The notes beneath the pieces were generated by a model. That model ran no database searches. It was not told where the DNA came from and worked only from the letters and a program-made list of their open reading frames with translations. Below are positions 3,339-27,545 of a stretch of DNA of 64,000 nucleotides, piece by piece. The DNA is from a virus, in IMG/VR virus record IMGVR_UViG_3300010354_000060, positions 1 through 64,000 of that record; one strand, given 5' to 3'. The first letter of the stretch is position 1, and each line of letters begins with the position of its first letter. Position numbers and translations under genes: made by a program.

Positions 3339-3878
3339 CCCATTCAAGTTATTGACAATTTTGTATCAATTTATGATGTTAAAAATTGTTATAATGATCT
3401 GGCATCAACTCATTGGGAAGTTGTATTTGATCATGCCTGGAGTAAAGTAAAACGTCGTGCATTTGGTCGTGGAATTGAGCACGAAGAATTGGAAATTGCT
3501 CTGAAAGAAAATGAAATGGTCAAATATTTTTATGGATTAGTTAAGAGTAGAAACCTTGAGGGATGTGGAACTCTTCGGCAATTTTATCTGAACTGTATTA
3601 AACCTGGTGATTCCTTTGAGTATCATCAAGACGTAACTCCTGGCAAGACTGAACTTGCTGGGAGTACAGTTTTAATCTACATGAACCCCGTGTGGAAATG
3701 GTGGTGGGGTTCAGGAACAGAATTTTTATTGGATAATAAAAAAACTCGTCTGGTTAGACCTAAACCTGGACGAGCAATTATATTTCCTGCAAAGATGCAA
3801 CACAGAGCAGTTGCACCAAACTTGCTATTAAATGATTTTGGAAGACTATCTATTGCTCTTCAGTTTTATAAGGACTGA
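3315..3878 (+). CDS. 2OG-Fe(II) oxygenase superfamily protein
   Basis: HQD...HRAV...RLSIA triad and 2OG-binding Arg; GTG start with AGGAGG Shine-Dalgarno. Confidence 0.85.
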   Translation: MDSYLSGTPIQVIDNFVSIYDVKNCYNDLASTHWEVVFDHAWSKVKRRAFGRGIEHEELEIALKENEMVKYFYGLVKSRNLEGCGTLRQFYLNCIKPGDSFEYHQDVTPGKTELAGSTVLIYMNPVWKWWWGSGTEFLLDNKKTRLVRPKPGRAIIFPAKMQHRAVAPNLLLNDFGRLSIALQFYKD

Positions 3879-19317: not shown

Positions 19318-22300
19318 TCATCCGAAGTTTTGACCGCCGACTACGCCGTATAGTGTTGCACCATTATCAAATGTTTTGAATGAATACATATCAGTTCTAT
19401 TTGGAATTGTTGTTACCTGAGGAACAACACCACCACCAGGCCAATAAACAGGAATTGTTGATCCTCCAGATGTTCTGAATGTATCAATTCCAACTCCATA
19501 TCCAGTGCTATTTTGAGTAATCTTAAGAGTAAATGATGTGGATCCTGAAGGTGGATTAATCAATATAAACTGATTGATAGCACTCGTAACGTCAAGAGTG
19601 AATGTTTGTGCCTTTGTGAGGTCAATGGTGACAACATTGGATGAAATTGTGAGAGGTTCTACATTTTCCGAATATGTTTTCAGTCTTGTATGCCCTTCAA
19701 TATCAAGTTTTGCTCTTGGTGATAAGGTTCCAATACCGACAGAAGTTGAAGTTGTGCGAATAACCGTAGCACCTGCACCAACAGAAAGAAGAGATGATGT
19801 AATAATACCAGCAGTTACTCTTCCAGATGCTGATTGTAAATCAAAGTTTGATGCTGTGATAATTCCGATTACATTTACAAGATTTGCGTCAACTCTATTT
19901 GCAAATTGAGCGATGTTTCTAACATAAAGATCAATATTTCCAGTGCCTGTTACACCAAGATCAAGATTATATTGTGGTTGTGAATTGCCAATACCAACAC
20001 TATTCAATGCGGTATTGTAAATTCCACCAGCAACGTTAGTCCATCCAGTTGAAGAGGCATTCAGATTTGTTAAGTTGCTACCATCTCCATAGAAGTATGA
20101 TGCAGTAACTGCTCCTGATACATTGGTATTGCCAGATACAAATAACTTATATCCATTATTAGTAGTTGTTCCAATGCCAACTCCATTAGAATCTACATTA
20201 AGAACATTGCTGATTCTTAAGAAGCTACTATTTGGACTTGTTGTTCCAATACCAATCTGATCAAACAGATTAATGTTAGCATCCTTAGATAGGCTGACAT
20301 TTCCTACACGATACCAACCATTTTCTACTGTGTATACCCAACCAAGATATGCACCTTTCTTTGGATTTTCATAATAAACTACATCACCTGGGTTTCCTGC
20401 AAGAGTTGGAGTTCCAACACCAACAGTATATTTTCTTGAAATTGTTGCATCACCTTGAAGGTAAAGCGAATTTGATTCAAATCCCTTAGATGAAGTTGAT
20501 GTTACTTTATTGTTGAAAACAACAGGACCATTAAATTCAGATGCTACCTTACCAGTATCTCCACCATCAACTTTAATTAATCTTGAAACATATGACTCAA
20601 GGGACTGTATGACATTAACTGAAGATGAATTGCCAATATCTTCTCCAGTAATAGTTTGAACTGGGGTATCAAAAATTTCTTCATTTCCAGTGATTGTACT
20701 CAGTCTCTTATTTCCACTATATGAAATGCCCTTATCATTCATTCCAGTGTAGAAATTAATTCCACCAGATTTTCTTGTAGACTGTGAAAGAAGTTCTTCT
20801 TCTGGAGTAATCAGACGATCTTGTTTGTCTGGGAAACCAGTTGAATAGTTACCTGGTCCAAATCCAAGATATTCAAATGTGTGTGCCGAAGCACGAATAA
20901 TTGAATGTCTTCTTAATTCAACTGGTCTAACACTTACTTTCCTTACTACAGAGTTAATATCATGGAAGGATGCCTTTGTTCCTGCAACACCACGGAAAAC
21001 ATAAATTGGATTTGCTGCTGGATTTGTTACTGTTGTTTTTACTCTAACAATCTCATCATCAATTTGTAGATAATCGCCAATATTAATGTCAAGATTTTGA
21101 ATGTTTAGAACATTAACTTCATCAGTTGTTGTGTTTGAAACAATTGCAGAGAGAGTAGTAGTAATTCCTGCATAGGTGGTTACCATTCTTCCACCAACAT
21201 TTTCATTGTCGTTGGTGATTGAACCATTTTGTGATGTTACACCTTCACGATAAGCATAGAGAGTTCCTGTTGCTGCTGGTGCTGTGGTTCCAACGCCAAC
21301 ATTTAATGTGAAGGTTGTTACGTCTCTATTTTCATCAACTATAAAACTATTATTGTAAATGCTTTGATTTGCACCAACAATTCTAATCTTATTGTCAACT
21401 CTAAATCCATGACTACCTACAGTTGTAACTGTTGCAATTCCAGTTACGTTATTGTAGTTGAATGATGCAATTCTAACTGATTTGCCAGTTAGATACGTTA
21501 CTGCGCCTAAAGTAGCCGTGTATCCAATACCGATTGATTGTCCAGTAGTGATTGAACTTGCCGAAGAAACAACGAAACTATTGGCAGCACCAACTTGAAC
21601 ATCAGTAATTCTATACAGAGTATTGAACGGTTTTAATGTTTCCGAAGTAATTCCAGTAATGCTAACTACTTCATCAACACTATTGTATATTTGAGATACT
21701 GTAACTACTGCTTGAGAATATCCAGAAGTAGTTGCAACCCCAACCACTGCAAGATTGTTACCAATCCCATAAGAACTACCACCATCAAGAATTTTAACTG
21801 ATGTGATGTTTCCAGAAGCATTGACAGTTAATTTTGCTGTCGCATGTTTACCAGTTACTGATGCTCCAATGGCAACTAAACGTGCATTATAGATATCACC
21901 AGCAGCACCACTTCCGTATCCAGCACCACTATTTGCAATACTTACATTAACAATTCTATTAAATCCGTGGTCAATATTTGTATGGATAATATGTGAAGAT
22001 GAAGATGTAGATTGAATATCAGTAATACCGACTCCAACATCAATATCATTCAGCAGTTTTGTAGTGGTTTCTTTTGTAATACTCTTGCGGACATCATTAA
22101 CAGATACTTGACCAATTAATGATGAAGATGCAAATGATCTTGCTTCTTCTGGATCAGATTCTGGATTATCTCTATTGAGTTGTGGATACAGTTCCTTAAT
22201 TGGTTGAGAATATTTTTCTTCAGTGAATGGTGCAACAGTTGGAGAGTTTGATGCATTTAATACTGTTAAGTAATAGATACCATCTTGTTGACCTGTTACA

Positions 22301-25137
22301 TATCTCTGAACTTCTTGAGTTCTAAAGACATAATAGATATCTTTAAATTTCTTTCTCTTGAAGTATGGTAGATCAATATTTCTTGCACTGGTATCATTTG
22401 TAAAAGTTCCTGGATCAGTCCCTATACCAACAGTAAATTGTTTGGCACTACTAATTCCAACGACTGAGTAACTTCCATTATAACCAGAATTTGGAACTCC
22501 ACTTGTGTTTGAAGTACTTCTAATATTGATAAGTTCTACTTCAGATCCTACAGAAAGATTATGTGGTAGTTCTGTTGAAATTTTTGCAAAATTTGAATTC
22601 CACTCAGCACCAGAAATGAACCTAAAGTTTCTCTGTTGATTTACGTGATTGAGTGATCCACTTCCAAAATAAGTGAGAATCTCTGAAGAAGTTGATCCAA
22701 TAGAAGTATTTGATTCCTGGATAATATATCCCTCAGTTGGTGGTCTTCCATATGAACCACCAGTTGATGCTGGAATTACATATCTAAACCTATAGATCTT
22801 ATCTGAAGCACTTCTATTGTCAGATCTTCTTGTAATAAACGTTCTTGGAGTAGCTTCACCAAGATTTGAAGTTCCAAGAGAAGTAATTGCAGAATAAATT
22901 GTATTCTCAGTTGCTGTGGTGGAAACCTTTACATACCATTGAGAGTTTGTTTCATCATATTGAATTGGGTGACCAATATCGCCAGAATTTTTATCTGAAA
23001 CTCTTGAAACAACTTTTAATACTCCACCTTTGCTATTGATTGAAATTGCATTTGCAGTAAATGCATCATTTTCAGTCTTTGCAAGTTTAATTTGGGTTGT
23101 TGTTGTAAGTCCACTATTTCCATTGTCACTTGTAATGACATAATAAACAGTATTTGTTTCTAAACCATCTGGAATTTGACCACTATCACTATAAACACGA
23201 ACAGACTCTGCATTAATAAAAGTATGTGACTGAGTTAATGTGAGCGTATTGCTTGTGATGCTGTTAATGCCAGCAGATCTCCCAACAGTAAATGATTTTT
23301 CTGAGGAAGATTGTGATCCTGGCATCACAATTCTTGATTTGTATTCAGTTACGGTTCCACCAACAGAAAGAAGAACTTTTAACTCATCATTTTCCTTTGC
23401 ACCAAAACGATATCCTTCCAAAACGTTTTCTGGTGGAATATCTGAATTTGAAGCATTATAAATGTATAGATTTCCAGTAGAAGCAATTCCAACTGTTTTT
23501 GTGACATCAAGAGAAGTGAACTCAATAGATCCATCAAGAGTTGTGATTTGTTTTGGTGGAATTATATGAGTAATGTATCCAACATCGTCTTGTGGGAAAG
23601 CATTAGTTTTAAATCCATCTGCAACAAGTGCTTTGGCGCCAAAATTGGAGTTGGAGTTATTGATTGATTGATCTCCACCACTTGCGGTAGAGAAGTGTTC
23701 TGCATATCCAATCGCAAACACCGATACGTTTTGAACGTAAGCGTCATTAATTGTCTTAATGTGGAAGCTACGATATGATGGTTTGTATATTGCTCTTGAA
23801 TTTGTGCTGAGAGTTTCATTCCCAGGAACAGTATTATCCTGATATGTGCCACTATCGCGATCATAAACTACAAAAGCGTTATCATCTTTTTGCAGTCCAA
23901 TACCCGTAAATTGGGCAATAACCATTGACTTGAATCCACTTGCCTTGGATCCATCTGCTAAAGCACCACACAAACCAAATACTGATCTCAATGAAATATT
24001 GAAGATGTATGGAGAAGCAGAACTAACTGTATCAGATCCAAGAGTTAAGGTTGCACCAGTTACTGAAGGTAGAGCAACTGATGGTGAATTTTGTACTTGA
24101 TATACAATTTGAGTATCACTGATCTTTTGAGATACTGTATATTGCCCATTATATCCCGAAGCAGGAATACCTGAAATTCTGAATGCAGTATCTACATCAA
24201 GACCAGGAACAGGAATCGTTGTTGTAACAGTAATTTGATTTGTTGATACTACACCATTTCCTGCTTTGATGCTGCTAATTCCTACAACATCACCAGGGGA
24301 ACCAACAATTCTAAATTCATCAATTTTTGGTTGAATATCTAAGTTTGGATCTGGGTAATCTGGTTCAATTGGTCTACCAGAAGATTGTCCATATGCAAGA
24401 CCAACCTTCTCATAATACATTTCAAGGTCAGTTCTATCAGTAGTATACTGTAAGAAAGGATCAGAAATTTTTACTTCATTAACACCGTCAGCATATTCAA
24501 AGCACGTTAATTTGCTGTGAGAGAAATTGGGAACGAACTGATTGGAAGTATAATCAATATACGATTTGCCGTTTGGATCAGCATCAAATAAAGAAAACTG
24601 CCAGAAGTAGCAACCACCAGTTACACGGAAAATCGCAGATCTTGGAATATTATCGTTTGTAGGATCTGGAACATAACTTGGACGAATCTTTGTTTTTCTT
24701 AGATCAAGTCCAACAATTGAAGTTCCACGAGGAACAATGACACCACCGTGAATACTATTAAACTTATGCAAAGCATTATCACTTGTGCTTAAGTCAAAAT
24801 TAGTTGTAAGGTCAAATGGTGCAAAGTCTGTTGAAGTAGCACCACTTCTTAATCTGAACGATCCAGATCCATCAGGAATCCAACCTGGACGGTTATCTAC
24901 TAAGTGATCACCAGGATAAAGTAGAACTGTGGTTTTATTGAATCTATCGTTGTTTAAACCTTTTTGATATGAAAATCTTGATGCCTCAATCAGTGCCCTT
25001 TGAATAGTCTTAAAGGGACGAGTTAGTGAGTTTCCTTGGTTTTCAATGCTATCTGTAGCATCTAAGTCATTGGGGTTAACGTAGAGGATTGTTCCCCTTG
25101 CTGACTTCAAAAAATTATCTAATCTGGAGAGACCCAT
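19318..25137 (-). CDS. large virion structural / long tail fibre protein
   Basis: 1939 aa, MGLSRLDNFLK..GTILYVNP.DLDATDSI.NQGNSLTRPFKTIQRAL cyanomyovirus family; late promoter at 25175-25169. Confidence 0.85.
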   Translation of the reverse strand: MGLSRLDNFLKSARGTILYVNPNDLDATDSIENQGNSLTRPFKTIQRALIEASRFSYQKGLNNDRFNKTTVLLYPGDHLVDNRPGWIPDGSGSFRLRSGATSTDFAPFDLTTNFDLSTSDNALHKFNSIHGGVIVPRGTSIVGLDLRKTKIRPSYVPDPTNDNIPRSAIFRVTGGCYFWQFSLFDADPNGKSYIDYTSNQFVPNFSHSKLTCFEYADGVNEVKISDPFLQYTTDRTDLEMYYEKVGLAYGQSSGRPIEPDYPDPNLDIQPKIDEFRIVGSPGDVVGISSIKAGNGVVSTNQITVTTTIPVPGLDVDTAFRISGIPASGYNGQYTVSQKISDTQIVYQVQNSPSVALPSVTGATLTLGSDTVSSASPYIFNISLRSVFGLCGALADGSKASGFKSMVIAQFTGIGLQKDDNAFVVYDRDSGTYQDNTVPGNETLSTNSRAIYKPSYRSFHIKTINDAYVQNVSVFAIGYAEHFSTASGGDQSINNSNSNFGAKALVADGFKTNAFPQDDVGYITHIIPPKQITTLDGSIEFTSLDVTKTVGIASTGNLYIYNASNSDIPPENVLEGYRFGAKENDELKVLLSVGGTVTEYKSRIVMPGSQSSSEKSFTVGRSAGINSITSNTLTLTQSHTFINAESVRVYSDSGQIPDGLETNTVYYVITSDNGNSGLTTTTQIKLAKTENDAFTANAISINSKGGVLKVVSRVSDKNSGDIGHPIQYDETNSQWYVKVSTTATENTIYSAITSLGTSNLGEATPRTFITRRSDNRSASDKIYRFRYVIPASTGGSYGRPPTEGYIIQESNTSIGSTSSEILTYFGSGSLNHVNQQRNFRFISGAEWNSNFAKISTELPHNLSVGSEVELINIRSTSNTSGVPNSGYNGSYSVVGISSAKQFTVGIGTDPGTFTNDTSARNIDLPYFKRKKFKDIYYVFRTQEVQRYVTGQQDGIYYLTVLNASNSPTVAPFTEEKYSQPIKELYPQLNRDNPESDPEEARSFASSSLIGQVSVNDVRKSITKETTTKLLNDIDVGVGITDIQSTSSSSHIIHTNIDHGFNRIVNVSIANSGAGYGSGAAGDIYNARLVAIGASVTGKHATAKLTVNASGNITSVKILDGGSSYGIGNNLAVVGVATTSGYSQAVVTVSQIYNSVDEVVSITGITSETLKPFNTLYRITDVQVGAANSFVVSSASSITTGQSIGIGYTATLGAVTYLTGKSVRIASFNYNNVTGIATVTTVGSHGFRVDNKIRIVGANQSIYNNSFIVDENRDVTTFTLNVGVGTTAPAATGTLYAYREGVTSQNGSITNDNENVGGRMVTTYAGITTTLSAIVSNTTTDEVNVLNIQNLDINIGDYLQIDDEIVRVKTTVTNPAANPIYVFRGVAGTKASFHDINSVVRKVSVRPVELRRHSIIRASAHTFEYLGFGPGNYSTGFPDKQDRLITPEEELLSQSTRKSGGINFYTGMNDKGISYSGNKRLSTITGNEEIFDTPVQTITGEDIGNSSSVNVIQSLESYVSRLIKVDGGDTGKVASEFNGPVVFNNKVTSTSSKGFESNSLYLQGDATISRKYTVGVGTPTLAGNPGDVVYYENPKKGAYLGWVYTVENGWYRVGNVSLSKDANINLFDQIGIGTTSPNSSFLRISNVLNVDSNGVGIGTTTNNGYKLFVSGNTNVSGAVTASYFYGDGSNLTNLNASSTGWTNVAGGIYNTALNSVGIGNSQPQYNLDLGVTGTGNIDLYVRNIAQFANRVDANLVNVIGIITASNFDLQSASGRVTAGIITSSLLSVGAGATVIRTTSTSVGIGTLSPRAKLDIEGHTRLKTYSENVEPLTISSNVVTIDLTKAQTFTLDVTSAINQFILINPPSGSTSFTLKITQNSTGYGVGIDTFRTSGGSTIPVYWPGGGVVPQVTTIPNRTDMYSFKTFDNGATLYGVVGGQNFG

Positions 25138-25180
25138 CTTATTAGTTCTTATAGTTTCCGTTATGGATTATTTATCATAC

Positions 25181-25203
25181 AACAAAACCTCCCGAAGGAG
25201 GTT
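25181..25203 (-). terminator. intrinsic terminator with UUCG tetraloop
   Basis: AACCTCC-TTCG-GGAGGTT followed by TTGTT. Confidence 0.85.
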
Positions 25204-25239
25204 CTGAAGCACACGGAAGGGGTCTTGGTTAGTATCGCC
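25181..25239 (-). ncRNA. candidate ~60-nt small RNA
   Basis: Lies between a near-perfect sigma70 promoter and a terminator; contains no AUG and no plausible ORF. Confidence 0.6.
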
Positions 25240-25245
25240 AAATAT

Positions 25246-25274
25246 AGTATACTTTACTTTTTAATTTTTGTCAA
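25246..25274 (-). promoter_or_regulatory. sigma70 (early) promoter
   Basis: TTGACA-N17-TATACT. Confidence 0.8.
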
Positions 25275-25425
25275 GTATATATTCAACTGTGGTTGCAACG
25301 TCATTCATAGCATCTCTAAGGTTTGGACGTTGACCAGATTCCATTTTGACAATTGGGCGATGGTCGTCAACAAGAGTCCAACGCCATTGTTCCATACTAT
25401 TACAATACCAAAGATTAATTTTCAT
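25261..25425 (-). CDS. small hypothetical protein (54 aa, not in ORF track)
   Basis: MKINLWYCNSMEQWRWTLVDDHRPIVKMESGQRPNLRDAMNDVATTVEYILDKN. Confidence 0.75.
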   Translation of the reverse strand: MKINLWYCNSMEQWRWTLVDDHRPIVKMESGQRPNLRDAMNDVATTVEYILDKN

Positions 25426-25570
25426 ATTTAGTATTCTCTAATTTAATCCAATTAATAAGAGCATTGACTTCCATTCGTTTTTCTTCAGTAAAATCAAATT
25501 GTTTATTGAAGAGATAAAAATCTAATGCCTCAATAGCAAGGTCTCTATCTTTTTGTGATATCAGAGACAT
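25415..25570 (-). CDS. small hypothetical protein (51 aa)
   Basis: Start MSLISQKDR with AGGAGG Shine-Dalgarno just after tRNA-Leu; the longer track version runs through the tRNA. Confidence 0.75.
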   Translation of the reverse strand: MSLISQKDRDLAIEALDFYLFNKQFDFTEEKRMEVNALINWIKLENTKYEN

Positions 25571-25584
25571 AATACCTCCTAAAG

Positions 25585-25666
25585 TGCCCAAAAGAGGACT
25601 TGAACCTCCACGAATAAATCCACTGGAACCTAAACCCAGCGCGTCTACCAATTCCGCCATTTGGGC
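25585..25666 (-). tRNA. tRNA-Leu (TAG)
   Basis: GCCCAAA acceptor, GGCGGAATTGGTAGACGC D-arm, loop TTTAGGT, long variable arm, GGTTCAAGTCC; CCA not encoded. Confidence 0.95.
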
Positions 25667-25670
25667 GAAG

Positions 25671-25742
25671 AGCCCCCGATCTGATTCGAACAGACGACCA
25701 ATGGTTTACAAAACCATTGCTCTACCACTGAGCTACAAGGGC
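25671..25742 (-). tRNA. tRNA-Thr (TGT)
   Basis: GCCCTTG acceptor, GCTCAGTGGTAGAGC D-arm, ATGGT-TTTGTAA-ACCAT, GTTCGAATC. Confidence 0.95.
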
Positions 25743-26132: not shown

Positions 26133-26339
26133 TTAACCTTTATAGGTTACTGGATGATACTTCAGATATTCAAAGAATGTCAACTTCATTTCTTTTTGTG
26201 ACATTCCACAGTGTTTTGCTGCGGCAGGCAAATTCATTTTTGAGTAAAATAATCCCTCGTTTGCTTCCTTCACGTTTTGTGGCGTTGTTTTCACTGGTTC
26301 TTCTCTCAGGGTCTTGTGACTAATGTGATAAAGATTCAT
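26133..26339 (-). CDS. small hypothetical protein, possible helix-turn-helix
   Basis: MNLPAAAKHCGMSQKEMK resembles an HTH recognition segment. Confidence 0.65.
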   Translation of the reverse strand: MNLYHISHKTLREEPVKTTPQNVKEANEGLFYSKMNLPAAAKHCGMSQKEMKLTFFEYLKYHPVTYKG

Positions 26340-26492: not shown

Positions 26493-26521
26493 ATAGTAGC
26501 ACAAAAGCATTACCATGTCAA
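26493..26521 (-). promoter_or_regulatory. sigma70 promoter for the tRNA cluster
   Basis: TTGACA-N17-TACTAT about 10 bp before tRNA-Gly. Confidence 0.8.
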
Positions 26522-26753: not shown

Positions 26754-26804
26754 GTGAGATCCGTTTCAATTACCTATGTATCATAGGGCATCCCCGCCCC
26801 TTTG

Positions 26805-27545
26805 TCAAGCGATCCGCCCGTTGATTACGTATTGTGAATTGTCACCTGGGTAGTCCGCTGGGGTCTGACCAGCATATTCTGGAATGTTCTTCTCAACATC
26901 CTTACGCTCGCCATAAACTATGTATGAGCAATTGATTGCCCCACCAGCATTGTTTTTGACAATGATCTTTGTTCCCCATTCAATTTTTTCAACAAATAAT
27001 TCTTGATAAGAACCAATTGGAGTTAATACTACTCCAACAGATTCTAAATCAACCAATTCTTTCCAATATTCTGGAAGTTCAATCACAGTATTGTTGACAA
27101 GTTTTCCTCTATGATATACCTCTGCCTGAGGACCCTCCAAACAAATATAGCGAAGTCTATGATTTTCTTTTGTTGGGTGTGAAATATCAAAAGACTTTTT
27201 GCTGTTTACGTTTGAAATTAAAGCTGACCAAGCAGCCCCAGCAAATGCGGGTGCTGTAATTGTTCCTGTTGCAATAATATTTCCACTAAAATATGAGTTA
27301 GTAGCATTAACTGTAAAAGATGGAATAGGACCATAGCTTGCTTCAAGGGTCACACTTGCAGTACTCGTCCCTGCAAGGTGCAAATAGACATAATCTGAAG
27401 GAGAATCTGTATTAACAAGACACATAGAAACGTCATTCAGATTAAATCCTCCATCAAAAATATTGGAGAAGTCGTCATTATCTCTGTATGCAAAATTTAC
27501 ACCTGGACCTGTAAATGTTCCATACTTTTGAAAAGTGTATGCCAT
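26805..27545 (-). CDS. baseplate/tail-associated structural protein
   Basis: K.FDI.HPTK...RLRY.CLEGP...VY.RG domain shared with 27545..28207. Confidence 0.7.
   Translation of the reverse strand: MAYTFQKYGTFTGPGVNFAYRDNDDFSNIFDGGFNLNDVSMCLVNTDSPSDYVYLHLAGTSTASVTLEASYGPIPSFTVNATNSYFSGNIIATGTITAPAFAGAAWSALISNVNSKKSFDISHPTKENHRLRYICLEGPQAEVYHRGKLVNNTVIELPEYWKELVDLESVGVVLTPIGSYQELFVEKIEWGTKIIVKNNAGGAINCSYIVYGERKDVEKNIPEYAGQTPADYPGDNSQYVINGRIA

Follow-up and report, generated by a model that had tools for sequence, protein, structure and literature searches.

We analyzed 64,000 nucleotides of viral DNA (positions 1 to 64,000 of the IMG/VR record IMGVR_UViG_3300010354_000060; hereafter, the window) and describe a predicted non-coding RNA of about 57 nt that is encoded on its minus strand at 25181 to 25239. 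Judging from sequence comparisons, this putative RNA is the long 3′-half form of a family of cyanomyovirus small RNAs that derive from the tRNA-Val(CAC) of the host and are complementary to it. By the same comparisons, the members of the predicted family are antisense copies of this one tRNA that have been trimmed in different ways, and all of them retain the complement of the anticodon loop. The initial annotation of this locus, which was made from the DNA letters alone, had instead proposed a small RNA with a pyrimidine-rich seed that resembles an anti-Shine-Dalgarno sequence.

Complementarity of the predicted RNA to a host tRNA

The window comes from an 82.5-kb fragment of a T4-like cyanomyovirus genome that is about 38% complete. 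All features of the locus lie on the minus strand, and coordinates are positions in the 64,000-nt stretch. A sigma-70-type (early) promoter has its -35 hexamer (TTGACA, 25269 to 25274) inside the last codons of an upstream open reading frame (ORF) of 54 amino acids. The -10 hexamer (TATACT, 25246 to 25251) follows after a 17-nt spacer, and the predicted start is the G at 25239, which is the seventh base after the -10. The start is placed by this promoter geometry and the end by an intrinsic terminator, with the hairpin AACCUCC-UUCG-GGAGGUU at 25186 to 25203 and a U-tract at 25181-25187; UUUUGUUG lies directly after the hairpin. The promoter and the UUCG terminator are as the initial annotation had them and, as it also said, there is no AUG within the predicted RNA (25181 to 25239).

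Two blocks of the predicted RNA are complementary to the tRNA. Block 1, GGCGAUACU, is the 5′ sequence of the RNA (nt 1-9, 25231 to 25239) and is the complement of positions 63-71 of the host's tRNA-Val, which belong to the 3′ strands of the T stem and of the acceptor stem. Block 2, GACCCCUUCCGUGUG (nt 16-30, 25210 to 25224), is a perfect 15-nt complement of positions 34-48 of tRNA-Val(CAC), which run from the anticodon along the 3′ strand of its stem into the variable loop. The last five bases of block 2 are GUGUG (nt 26-30, 25214-25210), which lies opposite C34-A35-C36-A37-C38 and has CUUCAGAA next to it. Between the blocks is a degenerate linker, AACCAA (25225 to 25230), which is a remnant of the complement to the 5′ strand of the T stem and is variable among relatives. 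The complement of the T loop (GGAUUCG) is deleted. Overall, the T loop and the entire 5′ half of the tRNA are missing from the window's complement.

The likeness of the short form of the family to the host RNA Yfr2, discussed below, pointed us to the host genomes, which we searched for the 12-mer GTGTGAAGGAAG from the anticodon arm. It is present in 195 of 301 Cyanobiaceae genomes, almost always once and mostly in genomes of at least 2 Mb; by our own count, a reversed control pattern is present in about 45 of the 301. In 27 of the 30 host loci that we fetched, the match lies inside one identical 72-nt block. ARAGORN identifies this block as tRNA-Val(CAC) on the opposite strand (reference L278:1466-1537), and the phage RNAs are therefore antisense to tRNA-Val(CAC). 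When we aligned the phage elements locally to the antisense of tRNA-Val(CAC), the scores were well above those of shuffled sequences (z = 4-11), while the sense strand was at background. The elements of the window and of phage S-CAM1 are colinear with the 3′ half of the tRNA.

The anticodon arm separates tRNA-Val(CAC) from tRNA-Val(GAC) and tRNA-Val(UAC), and the phage motifs fit tRNA-Val(CAC) only. Cofolding gives a similar picture, with energies that ignore tertiary structure and base modifications: net of unfolding both partners, the window RNA and tRNA-Val(CAC) gain -24.4 kcal/mol, as compared to -3.4 ± 3.1 for shuffled RNAs (minimum -13.6). Among the 31 distinct tRNAs of one Synechococcus-sized host genome, tRNA-Val(CAC) is the best partner, followed by tRNA-Val(GAC), which shares its 3′ half (-18.7), and then by a tRNA at -5.9. 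For the short form of the family (type B, described below), the best energy is -16.3, again for tRNA-Val(CAC), and the next is -6.6. The complement of the short form has no match above the reversed-pattern control in the genomes of phages S-SM2, Bellamy, or S-B43.

The distribution of the element fits hosts that possess tRNA-Val(CAC). In each of the four small, Prochlorococcus-sized genomes that we checked, tRNA-Val(GAC) and tRNA-Val(UAC) are present and tRNA-Val(CAC) is absent. Correspondingly, the element is absent from the five Prochlorococcus myoviruses that we searched (P-HM1, P-HM2, P-SSM2, P-SSM4, and P-TIM68). Matches with three mismatches in P-HM1, P-HM2, P-SSM2, and P-TIM68 were rejected as chance, as they lie in coding DNA and have no promoter or hairpin.

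We found no family in Rfam at the gathering threshold or at E ≤ 10 for 24900-25600, consistent with the initial annotation, which had not recognized a named family. The sister elements have no Rfam match either, and neither ARAGORN nor Rfam reports a tRNA on either strand at 25181-25240. A tRNA gene or pseudogene on the plus strand was also rejected: tRNA finders give no cloverleaf, and the T loop and the 5′ half are absent. Folded in isolation, the RNA has its terminator and only weak pairing in its 5′ part (z = -1.9). Resemblances that we noticed by eye to the cyanobacterial Pho box (CTTAACCA), boxA, helix 45 of 16S rRNA, domain IV of the signal recognition particle RNA, and RNase P RNA were set aside, as they are not conserved among variants of the element. 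A Shine-Dalgarno mimic (AAGGAAGUG) was dropped for the same reason.

Forms and predicted expression contexts of the family

To examine the conservation of the element, we assembled an unbiased set of 84 loci upstream of the fibre gene, including 80 loci from IMG/VR that were fetched by a query with the fibre N-terminus alone. About 53 of the 84 loci have a promoter, a short RNA, a hairpin, and a T-run directly upstream of an invariant late promoter. The layout of this module is TTGACx, a spacer of 17/18 nt, (TGn)TAtAAT, 6-7 nt, a conserved stretch of 15-45 nt, a GC-rich hairpin, and a T-run. (The hairpins were tallied with a cut-off of -8 kcal/mol, which undercounted those of type A.) The -35 and its 17/18-nt spacing are kept in about 45 related loci, and the -10 in relatives is TATAAT, TAATAT, or TAAAAT, often with TGn (an extended -10) upstream. 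A single promoter match would be insignificant here: the scan finds 10 sites, as compared to 12 ± 3.4 in shuffled sequences. It is because the module is conserved across loci that we consider the element to be real and not a chance promoter. This comparative evidence also supports the earlier proposal of a stand-alone, non-coding early unit with its own promoter and terminator.

The stems of the terminators vary (CCTCC/GGAGG, CCACC/GGTGG, CCCTC/GAGGG, or a long GGGTGACC-type stem), while the 5′ part of the RNA is constant. Small RNAs with an intrinsic terminator usually show this pattern. Because the loop lengths differ, we obtained no consensus terminator from MAFFT and RNAalifold.

We distinguish four types of the predicted RNA. 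Type A, which includes the window, has GGCGAUACU, a variable stretch, and then CCCUUCCGUGUG(A)CUUCAGAA. Type B, as in S-SM2, is GGUGUGAAGGAAGUGCG; type C is GACGAUACUGAAUCGUUACAGUGACCCAAAAAGUGUGAC; and type D is CCUUCCGUGUGAAAGAAG. The sole element that is common to all of the types is GUGUG, the complement of the anticodon loop. Block 1 is shared by types A and C and by the copies in tRNA trailers. Type C also retains most of the complement of the T arm. Type B mirrors positions 23-38 of the tRNA, type D mirrors the whole anticodon stem-loop, and the form in S-B43 mirrors the 5′ half without the D loop. A CCCCTTCCGTGTG form is present in two other genomes.

An exact scan of IMG/VR for the core of type A found 30 contigs with one copy each, all of them in the context of an early promoter, a terminator, and the fibre gene. 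The variants of the 13-nt core are C-to-U changes opposite a G, which retain a G-U pair, and one missing C in locus L012; the sample is small, but it points to constraint at the level of the putative RNA. With a looser pattern (GATAC-N8-24-CYTTCCGTGTG), about half of the matches in IMG/VR are chance occurrences in GC-rich genes.

The 16-mer of type B is more widespread. It is present in at least 120 IMG/VR contigs, and just 3 of the 80 that we examined look like chance or true tRNA genes. It is always 4-10 nt after a -10 element, so it would form the 5′ end of the RNA. This -10 is part of a promoter of either the sigma-70 type or the T4 late type (CTAAATA or TATAAATA). The 16-mer is followed by a hairpin, which either ends the RNA or runs straight into a tRNA-Gly(UCC) gene. 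The linkage to tRNA-Gly(UCC) is real as synteny, and the GGAAG/CUUCC match is explained by the anticodon stem of tRNA-Val. In phage Syn9, the element has a late promoter and lies between gp134 and gp135, behind the capsid gene (gp23).

Other copies have no promoter of their own. In S-CAM1, S-CAM3, Sf-FR1, and further contigs, the RNA begins 1-3 nt after the 3′ end of a tRNA, which is mostly tRNA-Asn (copies of the S-CAM1 type begin 2 nt after it). Downstream of these trailer copies come a terminator, then a late promoter, and then a different gene for a giant tail protein.

The orientation is antisense to local transcription in all of the contexts (we counted five), which include an early promoter of its own, a late promoter, a tRNA trailer, and a tRNA-Gly leader. 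There is one copy of the element per genome, and one in the 82.5-kb record. The isolate records that we inspected have no annotation at the element. Taken together, the comparisons indicate that the putative RNA, rather than the promoter, is the conserved entity. A metatranscriptome run that contains 6% of the words, in contigs that come from relatives, has no cover at 25111-25211 and is uninformative about expression.

Some loci have unusual copies. In L127 (264-330), L140, L163, and L171, the GTGTGAAGGAAGTGCG 16-mer is followed by a larger, conserved, structured insert of about 55 nt (..GGTTCCGTGCCTGTGAAGGGAAACCTGAGGCTGGGTAAATCC..), which replaces the simple hairpin. This insert is found in some of the tRNA-Gly-leader copies and has no match in Rfam. 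L395 (266-300; from the 75-kb contig IMGVR_UViG_3300045391_005021) has nearly all of the 3′ half of tRNA-Val in antisense, with the T loop (GGGCGATACTGGATTTGAACCAGTGACCCCTTCCGTGTGAAGG) present; this copy has no obvious promoter or terminator and may represent an att-like piece of a tRNA in a phage of a different kind. L162 (IMGVR_UViG_3300045988_173684) has an apparently complete gene of the tRNA-Val(CAC) type with a different acceptor stem, and the 16-mer match is on its opposite strand.

Possible roles of the RNA

The most likely role of the element, to which we give about an even chance, is to act by pairing with tRNA-Val(CAC), as an early antisense RNA that disables this host tRNA. More tentatively, it may be a dedicated "anti-tRNA" that removes tRNA-Val(CAC) from translation, so that an AT-rich virus shuts off its GC-rich host in a codon-selective way. 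As a part of that same tentative proposal, members of the anti-tRNA family may have come to differ in where they attack the tRNA: on its 5′ side, on its 3′ side (as in the window), or over the anticodon arm as a whole.

The host RNA polymerase would transcribe the RNA early in infection from the sigma-70-type promoter. GUGUG would make the first contact, with the exposed anticodon loop, and from there pairing would extend along the anticodon stem (3′ strand) and into the variable loop. The acceptor and T stems would be invaded by the 5′ block of the RNA, with the T hairpin extruded. The tRNA or its precursor would be locked in a heteroduplex, in which it could not be charged or enter the ribosome, or it might be cleaved. 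Decoding of GUG would slow, and translation of host genes would be hit harder than translation of phage genes.

A codon-biased shut-off is proposed because GUG is a major codon in the host and rare in the phage, and because related phages bring their own tRNA-Val(UAC). In two host samples, for which the sets of ORFs are crude, GUG makes up about half of the valine codons (31.6-37.7 per 1000 codons). In the phage, GUG is just 6-7% of valine codons (4.1-4.8 per 1000). Among codons that have a dedicated C34 tRNA, GUG is the second most host-biased, after CUG. The valine tRNAs that we observed in phages all have the anticodon UAC and, within the stretch that would be targeted, mismatch the host tRNA at 2-6 positions.

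Several considerations weigh against this proposal. The transcription start site, the 3′ end, and the abundance of the RNA are all inferred. Mature tRNAs are tightly folded and modified, so invasion may be slow. In the host genome that we examined, there is also a tRNA-Val(UAC), and wobble allows it to read GUG. A phage-borne tRNA-Val(UAC) would serve host mRNAs in this way too, so shut-off could be no more than partial. Several other C34 tRNAs could be targeted just as well, which leaves the choice of tRNA-Val(CAC) unexplained. Many phages have the short form under a late promoter, which is a poor fit to early shut-off of the host, and the Synechococcus phage S-PM2 lacks the element. Finally, all codons that end in G are rare in the phage, and GUG is not avoided beyond the others. 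Because the avoidance is not specific to GUG, codon usage is only consistent with the model and is not diagnostic.

An improbable alternative, which the same complementarity would serve equally, is that the RNA protects the tRNA or counters a defence. It might shield the anticodon loop of tRNA-Val(CAC) from an anticodon nuclease of the host, or it might soak up fragments of tRNA-Val or a defence factor that is directed at tRNA. Phage countermeasures against tRNA-cleaving defences are an established theme (PMC10264068), which lends this explanation some weight. The versions with late promoters also fit protection throughout infection more easily than early shut-off. On the other hand, the phage hardly uses GUG and would gain little, and a tRNA that is held in a duplex is itself unusable. 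We also know of no tRNA-Val-specific nuclease in these hosts.

That the element is a non-functional relic seems unlikely to us as well. It might be an inverted fragment of a captured tRNA-Val, caught between an early promoter and a terminator that insulates early from late transcription, with the transcript as a by-product. The tRNA clusters of cyanophages are often rearranged, and type A retains only a degenerate complement of the T stem. But a perfect complement of 13-16 nt to the anticodon arm is found in more than 150 divergent contigs, in which the flanks, the terminator stems, the class of promoter, and the position all change, and a fragment in decay would not be preserved in this way. 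The orientation is always antisense to local transcription. Also, the complement starts at or within a few bases of the predicted start site, or 1-3 nt after a tRNA processing site. Purifying selection on the complementary bases is suggested.

We also considered whether the RNA mimics the 5′ end of Yfr2 and sponges the host RNAs Yfr1 and Yfr10, via their motif ACUCCUCACAC. RNAs of the Yfr2 family begin with a single-stranded GUGUGUAGGAG or GGUGUGAGGAA, which pairs with Yfr1 (PMC2518516, PMC2662882, PMC6778093). The short phage form begins with GUGUGAAGGAAG, which is similar. In the window, however, GUGUG is internal and is followed by CUUCAGAA instead of a run of purines, and the pairing with Yfr1 would be just 5 bp. 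Even the short form matches Yfr1 only with two bulges, as compared to a perfect match to the tRNA over 16-17 nt. Nothing in Yfr2 corresponds to the homology with the acceptor, T, and D arms; the second motif of Yfr2 (the central loop) is absent, and there is no match in Rfam. Overall, mimicry of Yfr2 is quite improbable.

As a separate observation, the ultraconserved Yfr1 motif ACUCCUCACAC (PMC2190773, PMC2518516) resembles the anticodon arm of tRNA-Val(CAC), ACUUCCUUCACAC (host loci L278-L306), which has two extra U. Likewise, the 5′ end of Yfr2 resembles the antisense of that anticodon arm.

The seed that was originally proposed, the C/U-rich CCCCUUCC, was thought to pair with purine-rich ribosome-binding sites in the host or to titrate a host protein. 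CCCUUCC is indeed invariant in type A and is predicted to be unpaired, and GGAAGGGG-like sequences could occur near host start codons. However, CCCCUUCC lies inside the perfect 15-nt complement of positions 34-48 of tRNA-Val(CAC) and is fully explained as a part of it; the titration of a host protein finds no support for the same reason. Nor is the seed conserved beyond type A. Type C has GACCCAAAAA in its place, and type B, at the same locus, has AAGGAAG, a purine run that is complementary to the seed rather than similar to it and that mirrors the other strand of the same anticodon stem. Given that the sister forms lack it, CCCCUUCC does not hold up as a general seed by the annotation's own test, which was conservation of the seed among relatives. 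The sole target that we noticed by eye is 6 nt in the 5′ untranslated region of the fibre gene (UUCCGU/ACGGAA). We rejected this pairing: it is not conserved in S-CAM1, and the types of untranslated region and of RNA do not co-vary. We would give a trans-acting seed very little probability.

About as little should be given to a cis-acting attenuator like a T-box, in which the nascent leader would bind tRNA-Val and thereby modulate read-through of the terminator into the fibre gene. In its favour, a terminator and a large gene come directly after the RNA, which, like T-box leaders, would contact the anticodon and the acceptor side of one tRNA. But the fibre gene has an invariant late promoter of its own beyond the terminator, and the same RNA is found as a terminator-less leader of tRNA-Gly, after gp23 in Syn9, and ahead of genes that are unrelated. 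The predicted folds contain no alternative antiterminator that would overlap the complementary blocks, and Rfam gives no T-box match.

Finally, it is highly improbable that the element is an att-like site, with the 3′ part of a host tRNA gene copied for integration: type A covers the half of the tRNA, from the anticodon loop to the 3′ end, that integrative elements commonly carry, but the T loop and the discriminator/CCA end are missing (so that integration would destroy the tRNA), the identity is interrupted, the anticodon arm is represented in other forms by its 5′ side alone, the 82.5-kb record (about 38% complete) has no tyrosine integrase (PF00589), and these phages are T4-like and lytic.

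Related systems and genomic setting

The mode of action of the window RNA would be that of a trans-acting antisense RNA, and its closest relative is the short (type B) form from cyanophages such as Syn9 and S-SM2. The two share GUGUG, the target tRNA, the architecture with a terminator hairpin, and the single copy per genome, and in S-SM2 and Bellamy the short form is at the same locus as the window RNA. The short form starts at GUGUG, while the window RNA has a 5′ extension of 25 nt, so that GUGUG is internal. Since the 5′ end of the window RNA is the complement of the acceptor 3′ strand, and not GUGUG, we consider it to be a distinct sub-form. The short form mirrors positions 23-38 of the tRNA and the window RNA mirrors 34-48 and 63-71, so they would pair with opposite strands of the anticodon stem. 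Otherwise, the predicted transcript in the window has the features of the family: the GUGUG complement of C34-C38, a perfect complement to the anticodon arm of at least 13 nt (15 nt in this case), the antisense orientation, a GC-rich 3′ hairpin, and a single copy. We found no publication on the short anti-tRNA-Val form in the literature. What the analysis of the window adds to this putative family is the long 3′-half form, its predicted expression as a tRNA trailer, and the mirror-image 5′-half form in S-B43.

Among known RNAs, Yfr2 is similar: it is short, has an unpaired motif that includes GUGUG ahead of a hairpin, and occurs in the same group of hosts. The motifs of Yfr2 are an unpaired GUGUG(U)AGGAG-type 5′ end and a conserved central loop (PMC2518516, PMC2662882). 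In contrast, the window RNA has neither a match in Rfam nor the GAAACAAGGAAA-like central loop, and its GUGUG is followed by CUUC. The phage RNA also differs in that it complements a tRNA over several arms and is encoded by a phage. T-box leaders also recognize one specific tRNA via its anticodon and acceptor side. They do so with a 3-nt specifier and a 4-nt contact to NCCA on the folded tRNA, within a large, structured, cis-acting leader. The phage RNA has 15 + 9 nt of plain antisense, which would unfold the tRNA; it has no T-box motifs, and it is stand-alone or linked to tRNAs.

Small RNAs that are released from tRNA precursors include 3′ETS-leuZ of E. coli and, from the tRNA cluster of phage T4, the stable RNAs C and D. 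The S-CAM1-type copies are likewise linked to tRNAs, and the copy in the window ends an early tRNA cluster. 3′ETS-leuZ sponges small RNAs, while the phage RNA complements a tRNA. Antisense complementarity to tRNAs is found in the archaeal C/D-box guide RNAs, which pair with tRNAs and guide their methylation, and in RNA I and RNA II of ColE1, whose loops contact uncharged tRNAs and tune the copy number of the plasmid. Those RNAs are encoded by cells or plasmids; here, a virus would target the tRNA of its host. T4-type phages also have PeSL cassettes, which are repeats of a promoter and a stem-loop, with many nearly identical copies per genome in hyperplastic regions. We rejected a PeSL cassette as the identity of the element, as there is a single copy per contig.

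Phage small RNAs, phage tRNAs, and host nucleases that cut tRNAs are all known, but our literature search found no report of a virus with an RNA that is antisense to one particular tRNA of its host. If tRNA-Val(CAC) is disabled as proposed, this would be a new route of host shut-off, one that takes advantage of how differently virus and host use codons. Such an RNA would represent a new kind of host manipulation and would bring something new to the conflict over tRNAs between phages and bacteria. Because the family is abundant in cyanophages from marine and lake waters, it could affect how translation is allocated in infected picocyanobacteria. It could also offer a compact natural design for the knock-down of a single tRNA. 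As members of the family occur in the cultured isolates Syn9, S-SM2, S-CAM1, and S-CAM3, the proposal is directly testable there.

The relatives of the window include S-SM2, Bellamy, and S-B43. Downstream of the RNA, and also on the minus strand, is a gene of 1939 amino acids (19318 to 25137, with its ATG at 25137), which is annotated as fiber or tail fiber in relatives. Its T4-type late-promoter-like sequence, GATAAATA, is at 25169 to 25176. (A/C)TAAATA is invariant at this distance from the ATG in nearly all of the 84 loci, and it is kept in loci that lack the small RNA. The initial annotation had treated the RNA as separate from the next gene, and the position of this late promoter, beyond the terminator, agrees with that.

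Upstream of the RNA is the 54-amino-acid ORF (25261 to 25425, minus strand), whose stop codon is at 25261 and whose 3′ end holds the -35 hexamer. About 350 nt upstream are tRNA-Leu(UAG) and tRNA-Thr(UGU) (25584 to 25742, minus strand), at the end of an early tRNA cluster (Leu, Thr, Leu, Gly). Two unrelated ORFs embed the promoter of the RNA in their last codons: one ends in ..EYILDKN (window, 25261-25280) and the other in ..RLTWKEEKWYNN (L004-L012, about 1085-1125), each followed by its stop. RNAs of types A and B are each found with either of these ORFs, which indicates that the RNA module and its neighbours recombine freely.

The minus strand of the window has three further near-consensus sigma-70 promoters, at 26780-26808, 26493-26521, and 26154-26183. 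They consist of TTGACA, a spacer of 17/18 nt, and TATGAT, TACTAT, or TATCAT, and they lie inside the cluster of tRNAs and small ORFs. This suggests that the region is a string of short early units.

Twelve loci without the anti-tRNA RNA (L017, L019, L033, L035, L039, L044, L059, L060, L075, L077, L078, and L083) have another conserved intergenic element, without a promoter, just upstream of the late promoter of the fibre gene. Its sequence is TGAGGGAAAA..GCTTTTAATTCCAAAAAAGTCGGAAAAAAATCCCC..TTTTTTT, and it lies about 120 nt upstream of the fibre ATG (which is at 1201 in these loci). Also, abiF RNA (RF03085) heads tRNA arrays in cyanophages, with wcaG RNA (RF01761) nearby. Both are above the gathering threshold of Rfam, and the abiF and wcaG matches are at 3583-3619 (minus strand) in L117, 2203-2239 (minus strand) in L171, 5338-5436 in L127, 3121-3220 in L151, and 560-660 in L177.

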